Sequence record: PZ154896.1
DNA length: 64,000 nt
Source: a phage
Strand: one strand, 5' to 3'
Below, piece after piece: positions 46,648-47,425 of this stretch. The stretch's first letter is position 1; every line of letters starts with the position of its first letter. The position numbers and the translations under genes were made by a program. Below the pieces are notes generated by a model. That model had not been told where the DNA came from. It was given only the letters and a program-made list of their open reading frames with translations, and did no database searches.

Positions 46648-46739
46648 ACGAAACGCCGGGATTCGAACCCGGTTATTAAGCAGTTGACGCTACTCAATAT
46701 TTTTAAAAGGCCATATCTCGACCATATCCGAACGTTCCG
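46648..46739 (-). other. tRNA-like element / probable tRNA pseudogene
   Basis: Canonical T-arm CCGGG-UUCGAAU-CCCGG and 7-bp acceptor pairing, but no canonical D or anticodon arm in the 92-nt span. Confidence 0.3.
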
Positions 46740-46907
46740 TCAAAAACGCTACTCGGCTTACGGCAAAGATATTTCCTCGAATCGATAATTCTTTGCGCCG
46801 TTTCTGCTGTGATGTAAGGGGATATTAACAAATCATAAAGATTTATTAAGACCAGTCCTTACTCAGGGAACATCAGTCCGACGACTTGCCGGTAGCGACC
46901 CGGCTTC

Positions 46908-47252
46908 TTATTTTGACATATCATCAATTTGTTCTCTACGTCTACGCCATAGATTAATTACTTCATCAACACATTCAGCATTTGGTATATGACGACAATA
47001 GTATAGTGATTCGCGTTTCTGGAACCGATGTTGTAATGGAATTTCGTTTAAAAGGTCTTTACGGTCAAAGTATTCAAAACTAGTTAACCCGGAACGGTTT
47101 TTAAGAAACTTCCAATGTCCGAATTCATTTTGAAAATAAACATAATCAGCGTGTTGATATAACGAATTAATCAACCGGTCGGAAATAACTGTATCCTGTT
47201 CATTAAAATAAAACGTTAAATCATGAACTACCAGATAAATATTACCTTTCAT
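46908..47252 (-). CDS. hypothetical protein
   Basis: Start set at ATG 47250-47252 (MKGNIYLVVHD) to avoid overlapping tRNA-Arg. Confidence 0.5.
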   Translation of the reverse strand: MKGNIYLVVHDLTFYFNEQDTVISDRLINSLYQHADYVYFQNEFGHWKFLKNRSGLTSFEYFDRKDLLNEIPLQHRFQKRESLYYCRHIPNAECVDEVINLWRRRREQIDDMSK

Positions 47253-47270
47253 ATTTTCCTCACTTAAAGT

Positions 47271-47347
47271 TGGTCGAGACAGAAGGATTCTAACCTTCAA
47301 CCTACGGATTAGAAGTCCGTTGCTCTATACAATTGAGCTATGCCTCG
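47271..47347 (-). tRNA. tRNA-Arg (anticodon UCU), CCA encoded
   Basis: Manual fold: acceptor CGAGGCA/UGUCUCG, D-stem GCUC/GAGC, anticodon stem ACGGA/UCCGU, loop CUUCUAA, T-arm GAAGG-UUAGAAU-CCUUC, discriminator A, CCA. Confidence 0.88.
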
Positions 47348-47350
47348 GAT

Positions 47351-47425
47351 TGGTGACCCTGGCTGGTTTCGATCCAGCTACCTATCAGTTATGAGCTGAC
47401 AGCTCTCCCATTGAGCTACAGGGCC
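47351..47425 (-). tRNA. tRNA-Met (anticodon CAU; could be Ile2 if lysidine-modified), CCA encoded
   Basis: Manual fold: acceptor GGCCCUG/CAGGGUC, D-stem GCUC/GAGC, anticodon loop CUCAUAA, T-arm GCUGG-AUCGAAA-CCAGC; 3 nt from tRNA-Arg. Confidence 0.8.

Follow-up and report, generated by a model that had tools for sequence, protein, structure and literature searches.

The stable RNAs rnaC (species 1 RNA) and rnaD (species 2 RNA) of phage T4 have been known since the 1970s, and the T4 stable RNAs are processed by RNase P, RNase III and RNase E. Northern blotting has validated both RNAs, and the same work classes them as late and calls them "small regulatory RNAs" (PMC9697503). Their function is given as unknown in the literature (PMC3014915), and in laboratory hosts T4 can do without its tRNA region (PMC2330249). 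A convergent adaptive SNP in rnaD has been reported (PMC12685909). Apart from function-unknown statements, our literature search on the two RNAs turned up the northern blot and the papers on SegB and on BW1 evolution only, in none of which a function is shown.

We have analysed a stretch of 64,000 nucleotides (the window; PZ154896.1) from a T4-type phage of the Mosigvirus genus (RB69/HX01-like). The locus described here lies on the minus strand, as do all the features given below by their window coordinates, and reads in the order promoter-like signal, tRNA(CAU), tRNA-Arg(UCU), 114-aa ORF, rnaD, rnaC, hairpin and terminator. The best joint explanation, which includes the tRNA-mimic proposal discussed below and to which we assign a probability of about 0.72, is that the locus represents the tRNA and stable-RNA operon of T4 in its Mosigvirus form. 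The original prediction had described a contracted T4 locus carrying two intact tRNAs and a decayed one. Contraction holds for the tRNAs, of which there are two here versus eight in T4. The supposedly decayed 92-nt element, on the other hand, is part of rnaC, one of the two small RNAs of T4, and rnaC is not decayed; the small-RNA part of the locus is therefore intact rather than contracted. The two RNAs are already known biology that has gone unannotated in the closest relatives.

Layout of the locus and the two tRNAs

As predicted, the locus holds only two canonical tRNAs, which are 3 nt apart and have CCA encoded. ARAGORN run on the entire 64 kb called two tRNAs only. The tRNA with anticodon CAU (47351-47425), called as tRNA-Met, scores 59.4 bits with the Rfam tRNA model, and tRNA-Arg(UCU) (47271-47347), located downstream of it across the gap at 47348-47350, scores 71.1 bits. 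The encoded CCA is seen as plus-strand TGG at 47351-47353 and 47271-47273, respectively. The tRNA-Arg(UCU) aligns with the Arg(UCU) tRNAs of Aplg8 and IME281. The CAU tRNA has its acceptor stem, GGCCCUG/CAGGGUC, and its D arm in common with the annotated tRNA-Ile of T4, the gene of which likewise reads CAT. Moreover, it contains C4-G69 and C5-G68, which are determinants for TilS. Judged by these features, it is probably a tRNA of the Ile2 type needing lysidine rather than a tRNA-Met. The codons AGA and AUA are used at 7.4 and 10.4 per 1000 codons, respectively, in the ORFs of the window, and both are rarer in E. coli. The retained pair of tRNAs would read AGA and probably AUA, codons that the phage often uses.

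A middle-promoter-like signal (47488..47512) can be read directly from the sequence 5' of the tRNA pair. It consists of the MotA-box-like TGCTTTA (47512..47506), a 12-nt spacer and the -10-like TATTAT (47493..47488), and thus resembles the consensus of T4 middle promoters. In T4, the sequence immediately preceding the tRNA cluster shares 87.5% identity with 47524-47477. From this we infer a putative middle promoter upstream of the tRNA pair.

The 114-aa ORF (46908..47252, with the ATG at 47252 and the Shine-Dalgarno sequence GAGGAAAA), which was taken from the ORF list, is situated between tRNA-Arg and rnaD. It encodes a conserved phage protein that matches phrog_3355 (E 2.8e-50), a PHROG of unknown function, and its equivalent is annotated as a CDS in UTI-E2. 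A Pfam search with the ORF gave DUF2654 below threshold and nothing else.

Downstream of rnaC, folding and alignments identify a conserved hairpin (46608..46638), which is still present in Dhakavirus, a genus lacking rnaC. From the older T4 literature, it may be an RNase III site. Folding also places an intrinsic terminator, GCCCCUUCCGAAAGGUUGGGGC followed by UUUUUU, at 46575..46604, and the annotations of Aplg8, G9062 and G4507 have a terminator at the corresponding site. A simple promoter/terminator scanner overlooked this terminator because of its internal U.U pairs. What the scanner did call, on the empty strand, is the reverse complement of the rnaD hairpin.

Identity, fold and distribution of rnaC

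A 351-nt region of the window is 89% identical to T4 and spans the features annotated as rnaD and rnaC (MT984581); the same annotation is carried by Aplg8 and RB3. Alignment to the T4 annotation places the 139-nt rnaC orthologue at 46647..46785. It is identical to T4 rnaC at 137 of 139 positions (98.6%), whereas the flanking genes are 69-85% identical, making rnaC the most conserved stretch of the locus and showing that it is under very strong purifying selection. Only two substitutions separate the two RNAs, and one of them keeps a stem pair (U-A to U-G). In both phages rnaC is the last gene before the operon hairpin and terminator, and the predicted fold is common to the two. They differ in that the T4 gene is annotated, while the closest relatives of our phage lack the annotation; the RefSeq entry of HX01, for example, has spurious CDSs over rnaC. 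Across the locus, the miscalls in relatives comprise spurious "hypothetical protein" CDSs, "tRNA-OTHER" and "tRNA-Lys", and two conserved genes for non-coding RNAs have thus escaped annotation in these phages.

A covariance model built from the homologues found 46644-46785 as its sole match in the window (155.6 bits, E 4e-35). The MFE z-scores are -4.55 for rnaC, -3.50 for rnaD and -5.87 for the entire 346 nt. By these scores and the covariance-model match, the region is structured beyond chance. In Rfam searches at the gathering scores and at E values up to 10, tRNA was the sole family above threshold; the best that rnaC gave was tRNA-Sec with 16.6 bits (gathering 47).

These assignments bear on what had been said of the 92-nt element (46739..46648). 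It escapes both ARAGORN and the Rfam tRNA model, in agreement with the claim that it has no canonical tRNA fold, and the T arm that was recognized within it (46672..46656) is present. Its boundaries were misplaced, however, as it corresponds to the 3' two-thirds of rnaC. The gap at 46740-46907, next to the ORF end at 46908, had been suggested to harbor another small RNA; by alignment to T4 it does, accommodating rnaD and the 5' third of rnaC. The acceptor pairing proposed for the element, ACGGAAC/GUUUCGU, can be drawn in the present sequence, but it shows no double changes among 14 homologues; 11 of the 14 fail to pair at columns 49-140 and 5 at columns 50-139.

The fold of rnaC was examined with RNAalifold (n=8), on a MAFFT alignment (n=14) and on a model-aligned set (n=23). 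RNAalifold gave compensatory changes in 19 of 40 pairs. In the MAFFT alignment 98.2% of cells pair and 18 of 39 pairs show double changes; none of 500 shuffles matches this, and slid controls pair only to 38-48%. The 23 model-aligned homologues are 98.9% paired with double changes in 20 of 41 pairs, a level reached by 0/500 shuffles; this alignment was fitted to the structure of the model and is thus biased towards it, but the picture from the 14 MAFFT-aligned sequences agrees. Taken together, the comparisons show a predicted tRNA-shaped four-way junction in which the true 5' and 3' ends of rnaC form an acceptor-like helix.

In this helix CGAUUCG (46778..46784) pairs with CGUUUCG (46655..46649), with two conserved U.U positions enclosed by five Watson-Crick pairs. 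Only pair 4-140 varies: 15 of 23 homologues have G-C in place of A-U. U1 (46785) is located opposite U138 (46648), and in five homologues position 1 is an A, giving A-U. A 3-bp stem, AGG/CCU (46777..46775 with 46710..46708), flanks a long arm of 60 nt (46713..46772) that occupies the D-loop-like position and ends in the apical loop UUGACG (46743..46738). The long arms of the T4-like and Melville-like homologues have very different sequences with the helices preserved, and 8 of the 11 pairs in helices 3-5 of this arm display double changes. The anticodon-like arm (46674..46699) is of double length and has a 10-bp stem, with compensatory changes in 8 of 9 pairs, and the 6-nt loop CGUCAA (46689..46684). 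The T arm, CCGGG-UUCGAAU-CCCGG (46656..46672), was read from the sequence; its stem has one covarying pair, U-A to G-C in 8/23 homologues, and its loop is non-canonical in 3/23, being UGCAUNC instead of UUCGAAU. At the 3' tail most homologues have ACA, while U-CCA-A is encoded in Marfavirus.

Two tertiary contacts can be proposed for this fold. The anticodon-like loop CGUCAA complements the apical loop of the long arm at every base. The pairing varies only in the Marfavirus clade, where UUGGCG faces CGCCAA, amounting to one compensatory event. This suggests that the apex of the long arm may kiss the anticodon-like loop; the change may have arisen in a single evolutionary event. Following the long arm, a GG dinucleotide (46711..46712) is a candidate analogue of G18-G19 of tRNA. 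The 3 homologues with the UGCAUNC T loop (U55 to G55), and no others, have C for its first G, and its second G as well as C56 are invariant. We tentatively propose that the GG could contact the T loop in the way of tRNA G18/G19; here, too, the change may represent one evolutionary event.

Searches with the covariance model located rnaC in at least 10 genera, with one copy per genome, but not in Dhakavirus. Many genera have no rnaD, and the two RNAs occur independently across genera. In several phages rnaC sits within a tRNA array, between tRNA-Met and tRNA-Gly in Moon and between tRNA-Trp and tRNA-Gly in Melville and Pet-CM3-4. In LC53, Kc304 and EcS1 it precedes tRNA-Trp, and in LC53 and EcS1 the annotation has a tRNA-Phe directly before it. 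In those arrays 3-8 nt separate rnaC from the tRNAs on each side. A blastn search of rnaD plus rnaC against 5,426 complete E. coli genomes gave no match, and a host origin was therefore rejected. Two pattern scans of IMG/VR for more divergent homologues bearing on the two tertiary contacts returned only PG7 and Marfavirus-like variants together with chance matches, and a metagenome scan, in which 120 loci among the matches listed were screened with the covariance model, gave 4 true ones and no new variants.

rnaD, the second structured RNA

The rnaD orthologue is 120 nt long (46792..46911, by alignment to the T4 annotation) and is identical to T4 rnaD at 102 of 120 positions, its 5' 50 nt and 3' 28 nt being nearly invariant. 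It folds into a 5' hairpin, GCCGG-GUCGCUA-CCGGC (46904..46888), in which the present sequence has an A-U to G-C compensatory change, and a long irregular hairpin closed by GUCGUCG/CGGCGC (46885..46879 with 46800..46795). Compensatory changes were found in 10 of the 35 predicted pairs in a small sample of 6 sequences. A search of Rfam with rnaD gave no match at gathering scores or at E values up to 10.

As in T4, rnaD is directly upstream of rnaC and retains the 5' hairpin and the closing stem. It differs from its T4 counterpart in the apical half of the long hairpin, which is rewritten with compensatory changes, and at the 3' end, which is ACCA in T4 and AAAG here. The upstream context differs as well. 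In T4 rnaD comes directly after tRNA-Arg, whereas here the 114-aa ORF intervenes, so that rnaD follows an ORF, the stop codon of which overlaps its mapped 5' end, and not a tRNA. The spacer from rnaD to rnaC is GAAUUA (46786..46791), and in the alignments an AAUUA/AAUAA spacer is also found 3' of the CCA of the upstream tRNA in genera without rnaD. A pairing of 5 contiguous bp between the rnaD loop and rnaC was considered and dismissed, because the rnaC sequence is unchanged in genera that have no rnaD. We envisage rnaD as a second structured RNA that would be co-transcribed with rnaC yet evolutionarily separable from it, possibly with a host-specific role too.

Proposed function and comparison with known systems

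The position of rnaC in the tRNA slot of other genera makes it probable that it is matured like a tRNA. The ends annotated in T4 coincide with the ends of the terminal helix; from this, the tRNA slot and the conserved AAUUA spacer we infer processing by RNase P. In such a scheme rnaC would be released from a polycistronic transcript, RNase P cutting its 5' end and exonucleases trimming its 3' end, which would carry no CCA. The product would accumulate as a stable mimic of tRNA, its "anticodon" masked, and would act in trans on a host or phage factor that binds tRNA, for example as a decoy for an enzyme of tRNA-directed defence or processing. A point against the decoy is that a fully paired 6-nt "anticodon" loop could not bait an anticodon nuclease. 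What is more, the non-canonical T loops of three homologues and the mostly ACA tail indicate that rnaC is not a complete tRNA mimic.

In a fuller version of the proposal, rnaC may have derived from a tRNA, with a 60-nt arm, grown from the D loop, folding back onto the "anticodon" loop, so that the codon-like GAC at its apex (GGC in Marfavirus) pairs with the GUC "anticodon" (GCC in Marfavirus). Both the elbow and the face made by acceptor and T arm would remain tRNA-like. Matured by RNase P and self-locked in this manner, rnaC could occupy or titrate a factor recognizing the elbow or acceptor, for instance a processing enzyme, a site on the ribosome or an immune nuclease directed at tRNA, and rnaC, and perhaps rnaD, would be RNA-based determinants of host range or counter-defence. 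We offer this full version as a tentative proposal that is, on balance, unlikely to be right in every part. If true, it would account for the 50 years in which laboratory strains gave "no phenotype" as well as for the convergent mutation in rnaD. That mutation was reported on a semi-permissive natural host, and a phenotype should be sought in natural, defence-rich hosts. The covariation-supported model names targets for mutation, namely the terminal helix and the arm inserted in the D loop, together with the proposed contacts between the two loops and at the elbow, and the tRNA-slot context predicts that rnaC depends on RNase P.

Other explanations of the same RNAs have to be weighed against this proposal. 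Both RNAs could be cis-acting spacers that guide RNase P, RNase E or RNase III or protect a 3' end, their stability being incidental and a trans function lacking. The location of rnaC within tRNA arrays or right before a terminator would fit such a role, as would its loss in Dhakavirus, the absence of rnaD from many genera and the dispensability of the region in laboratory hosts (PMC2330249). However, 1-10 nt suffice at the other tRNA-tRNA junctions of the same arrays, and the near invariance across genera of UCGAGGA, UUUGACG, GGCCUU, AAAAU and CGUCAA exceeds what a punctuation hairpin needs. The convergent adaptive SNP in rnaD (PMC12685909) also argues against a by-product, and we consider this explanation distinctly unlikely. 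The invariance of unpaired stretches among homologues could instead reflect base-pairing of one or both RNAs with phage or host mRNAs, the tRNA shape serving only processing and stability; late accumulation in T4 and the label of "small regulatory RNAs" (PMC9697503) are consistent with sRNAs of this kind. As no target was identified in the present analysis and the best-conserved loops of rnaC are mutually complementary and not free, such a role seems highly improbable.

The notion of the original prediction that the 92-nt element (46648-46739) is a decayed tRNA, a functionless pseudogene left by contraction of the cluster with only the T arm and acceptor stem kept, did not survive the comparison with homologues. 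A T arm and a 7-bp acceptor stem can be drawn in this one sequence, tRNA finders used by others have called the stretch "tRNA-OTHER" or "tRNA-Lys", with a length of 94-96 nt, and descent of rnaC from a tRNA is quite possible. Nevertheless, constraint on rnaC is not relaxed, given its near identity to T4 next to far more divergent neighbouring genes. It occurs across genera with a different, full-length fold in which about half of the pairs have compensatory changes, and the acceptor stem proposed for the pseudogene shows no covariation, being disrupted in the majority of homologues. In T4 the orthologous RNA is stable and abundant (PMC9697503), and the alignments exclude that the homologues are recent horizontal copies without independent substitutions. 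A pseudogene is thus scarcely credible. Only slightly better placed, and still very improbable, is a chargeable tRNA-like RNA, of the tmRNA-domain or viral type, that is aminoacylated and enters translation. Both ends of rnaC form an acceptor-like helix stacked on the T arm, as in tmRNA, and Marfavirus has U-CCA-A at the 3' end; but ACA takes the place of CCA in most homologues, the RNA annotated in T4 stops 1 nt past the helix without a CCA, and the helix contains two U.U pairs. The tmRNA reading was rejected, since the ARAGORN tmRNA search was negative, a tag reading frame is absent and the tail is ACA.

Compared with a canonical tRNA, rnaC has a similar 7-position acceptor-like helix on a 5-bp T stem with a UUCGAAU loop (UUCRANY type), a possible T-loop contact of the G18/G19 type and a slot in tRNA arrays. 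It departs from one in its length of 139 nt, in the 60-nt arm replacing the D loop, in the 10-bp "anticodon" stem with a 6-nt loop that has no U33, in an 8-nt linker in place of position 26 and a variable region of 1 nt, and in its two acceptor U.U pairs and missing CCA. The tRNA-like domain of tmRNA presumably offers a parallel, its ends pairing as an acceptor/T-arm module and its body replacing the D and anticodon arms; unlike tmRNA, rnaC has no series of pseudoknots, no G3.U70, no CCA and no tag frame. The Rfam YrlA model scored 16.6 bits (gathering 69), over the real tRNAs and not over rnaC, which has no Ro-binding stem. YrlA, mascRNA and other processed mimics of tRNA do not decode; they reproduce its elbow and acceptor and are thereby recognized or processed by tRNA enzymes, and the likeness that rnaC would bear to them is one of function only.

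The small RNAs of the locus

All features of interest lie on the minus strand. ARAGORN called only two tRNA genes in the whole 64 kb, tRNA-Met(CAU) at 47351-47425 and tRNA-Arg(UCU) at 47271-47347, which score 59.4 and 71.1 bits, respectively, with the Rfam tRNA model; they lie 3 nt apart and both encode CCA. Upstream of the pair, a MotA-box-like TGCTTTA is followed 12 nt later by TATTAT, in a promoter-like segment that shares 87.5% identity with the sequence preceding the T4 tRNA cluster. Downstream is a 114-aa ORF (47252..46908; phrog_3355) with a good Shine-Dalgarno sequence, also present in UTI-E2, and then 334 nt that contain no credible ORF and close with a stem-loop plus a run of U. 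The ORF separates tRNA-Arg from rnaD, which in T4 have nothing between them; what T4 carries is the homing endonuclease segB, on the upstream side of tRNA-Arg. The 114-aa ORF may be one of the trna.1/trna.2 ORFs of T2L (PMC2330249).

The 921-nt locus is 98.4% identical to that of Escherichia phage HX01 (Mosigvirus), with 100% identity over the 351-nt non-coding part, and by its sequence the window belongs to Mosigvirus. The same non-coding part is 89% identical to T4, coinciding with the annotated rnaD ("species 2 RNA") and rnaC ("species 1 RNA"). Transfer of the T4 annotation through the alignment placed the rnaD orthologue at 46911..46792 and the rnaC orthologue at 46785..46647, both on the minus strand and separated by GAAUUA. 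We regard the identification of the small RNAs as rnaC and rnaD as near certain.

The features noted in the original prediction were confirmed, since the tRNAs, the gap, a perfect T arm in the 92-nt element at 46739..46648 and a 7-bp pairing, ACGGAAC/GUUUCGU, that can be drawn in the window sequence were all found, and no tRNA model tried accepts the element. Its reading of the element as a decayed tRNA was wrong. Because the T4 coordinates map rnaC to 46785..46647, the element is the 3' two-thirds of rnaC, which is identical to T4 at 137 of its 139 nt. Matches to T4 amount to 102 of 120 positions in rnaD, and the protein-coding flanks show 69-85% DNA identity. Judged from these comparisons, rnaC has not decayed. 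The suspicion that the 170-bp gap beside the element could hold a second small RNA was borne out: it contains rnaD and the first 46 nt of rnaC.

Fold and possible tertiary contacts of rnaC

The minimum-free-energy structure of the 139-nt rnaC has a z-score of -4.55, and RNAalifold gave the same architecture for eight diverse sequences, where compensatory changes support 19 of the 40 pairs. When 14 sequences were simply aligned with MAFFT, the partners could pair in 98.2% of cells, and both sides had changed in 18 of 39 pairs; no shuffle out of 500 did as well, and pairing fell to 38-48% when the partners were shifted by 1-3 columns. For 23 sequences aligned with the rnaC covariance model, an alignment that leans towards the model's structure, the values were 98.9% and 20 of 41.

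In this fold, on the minus strand, 46784..46778 (CGAUUCG, the true 5' end) pairs with 46655..46649 (CGUUUCG) in an acceptor-like terminal helix in which two U.U positions are conserved and one pair covaries between A-U and G-C. The other elements are a 3-bp stem (AGG/CCU), a 60-nt long arm (46772..46713), an A-rich linker of 8 nt, an anticodon-like arm with a 10-bp stem and the 6-nt loop CGUCAA, and a canonical T arm. The long arm occurs in two very different sequence versions that form the same helices. The pairing ACGGAAC/GUUUCGU, which draws on the 3' side of the long arm's apex, was rejected as an acceptor stem: it shows no covariation and, in the 14-sequence alignment, is unpaired in 11 sequences at one position and in 5 at another. 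Some public records repeat the mis-pairing, and the 3' two-thirds of rnaC are called "tRNA-OTHER tRNA-???(aa)" in G9062 (L044 270-365) and "tRNA-Lys(ttt)" in G4507 (L045 267-360). The HX01 RefSeq entry (L046 1064-1207) has neither tRNAs nor small RNAs, and small "hypothetical protein" CDSs cover them.

UUGACG, the loop at the tip of the long arm, is exactly complementary to the anticodon-like loop, and both loops are invariant save in the Marfavirus clade, where they read UUGGCG and CGCCAA; a kissing contact between them is possible. A second candidate contact is an elbow, in which the GG after the long arm would behave like G18-G19 of a tRNA. In CIP9, LC53 and Kc304 the T loop is UGCAUNC (UGCAUGC, UGCAUCC or UGCAUUC; L003 2506-2648, L009 1426-1568, L016 526-668) and not UUCGAAU, and exactly these homologues have CG for GG, so that G.U55 would become C-G55; the second G, with C56, is invariant. 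We treat both contacts as leads, because each may rest on a single evolutionary event. If both hold, rnaC would be a tRNA with a 60-nt D-loop arm masking its own "anticodon".

Distribution, ends and processing

Homologues of rnaC were found in Tequatrovirus, Mosigvirus, Gaprivervirus, Kanagawavirus, Moonvirus, Gelderlandvirus, Marfavirus, Winklervirus, Karamvirus and Kagamiyamavirus, the covariance model finding exactly one copy per genome (window copy, 155.6 bits, E 4e-35). No rnaD or rnaC homologue was found among 5,426 E. coli genomes. Within Kanagawavirus, CIP9 has the T4-type long arm, and PEi26 and Kosakonia 305 the Melville type; this split suggests modular exchange of rnaC between genera. 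Four correlated changes are seen in rnaC of the Marfavirus clade (L008 1500-1642; L019-L021; L100): G for A at the apex, C for U in the loop, A-U for G-C as the loop-closing pair and CCA for ACA in the 3' tail.

In rnaD, 10 of 35 pairs are compensatory (six sequences). Its 5' hairpin (46904..46888) carries an A-U to G-C compensatory change in the window itself, the long irregular hairpin that follows has a variable yet paired apex, and the 5' and 3' portions are nearly invariant. It was found only in Tequatrovirus, Mosigvirus and Dhakavirus, and rnaC occurs without it in Moon-, Gelderland-, Kanagawa-, Winkler-, Karam-, Kagamiyama- and Marfavirus. Dhakavirus (IME281 and VR5; L006 2498-2700, L010 1500-1700) has cleanly lost rnaC but still carries rnaD together with the hairpin and terminator downstream. 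Since rnaD occurs there without rnaC and is restricted to three genera, the two RNAs are independent modules.

The 114-aa ORF and rnaD overlap, with the ORF's stop codon (46910..46908) lying over the 5' end of rnaD as mapped by homology; this end must therefore arise by endonucleolytic cleavage or from an internal promoter; a sequence scan of the window identified no such promoter. The only terminator-like site returned by the scanner, 46888-46904 on the plus strand, which has no genes here, is the reverse complement of the rnaD 5' hairpin followed by TTCTTATTTT, and is probably a side effect of rnaD's A-rich leader.

In genera without rnaD, rnaC fills a slot in the tRNA array: between Met and Gly in Moon, between Trp and Gly in Melville and Pet-CM3-4, and before Trp in LC53, Kc304 and EcS1; in LC53 and EcS1 an annotated tRNA-Phe directly precedes rnaC. 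The flanks there are only 3-8 nt on each side, and the AAUUA/AAUAA spacer after the upstream CCA is the spacer that follows rnaD in the window. As annotated in T4, the ends of rnaC match those of its terminal helix, with one nucleotide more on the 3' side. We infer that rnaC would be released like a tRNA, its 5' end by RNase P and its 3' end by trimming, with which the T4 literature of the 1970s-80s is consistent. Charging is unlikely, judging from the 3' tail, because most homologues end in U-ACA-A; U-CCA-A occurs only in Marfavirus.

Between rnaC and the terminator, a hairpin (46608-46638, minus strand) is kept in T4, Aplg8 and even the rnaC-less Dhakavirus; an RNase III cut was reportedly placed 3' of species 1 RNA in T4. 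A T4 late-promoter-like TATAAATA (46567-46574, minus strand) comes straight after the operon terminator, with the next gene (46531..45905) beginning about 35 nt further downstream. Such motifs are no more frequent in the window as a whole than chance predicts (9 found, 7.9 expected).

Function and comparison with T4

The CAU tRNA, whose acceptor stem includes C4-G69 and C5-G68, is likely a lysidine-dependent AUA reader, because it shares the acceptor stem GGCCCUG/CAGGGUC and the D arm with the annotated tRNA-Ile of T4, whose gene also has CAT. AGA and AUA, both rare in E. coli, are used in the window ORFs at 7.4 and 10.4 per 1000 codons, in line with the phage having kept just this pair of tRNAs. 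Salmonella phage Melville has two CAU tRNAs, one of which (L005 1808-1883) is presumably essentially identical to E. coli tRNA-Ile2 (ileX) and, if so, may be a recent capture from a host.

RNAC and RNAD of T4 are late RNAs, confirmed by northern blot (PMC9697503), whose roles are stated as unknown (PMC3014915); the T4 tRNA region is not essential (PMC2330249). The mechanism we prefer, at about one chance in three, is that rnaC would persist as a stable mimic of a tRNA and act in trans on some factor able to recognise the shape of tRNAs; rnaD might be a second RNA of host-specific effect.

The finding is a re-discovery of a known T4 locus; what makes it of interest is the gap in annotation, together with a structural model, backed by covariation, for an RNA that has been an orphan for 50 years. 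The proposal that the locus is a contracted version holds for the tRNAs and fails for the small RNAs: T4 has eight tRNAs, rnaD and rnaC, the window phage two tRNAs and both RNAs, and the contraction relative to T4 is limited to the tRNA set.
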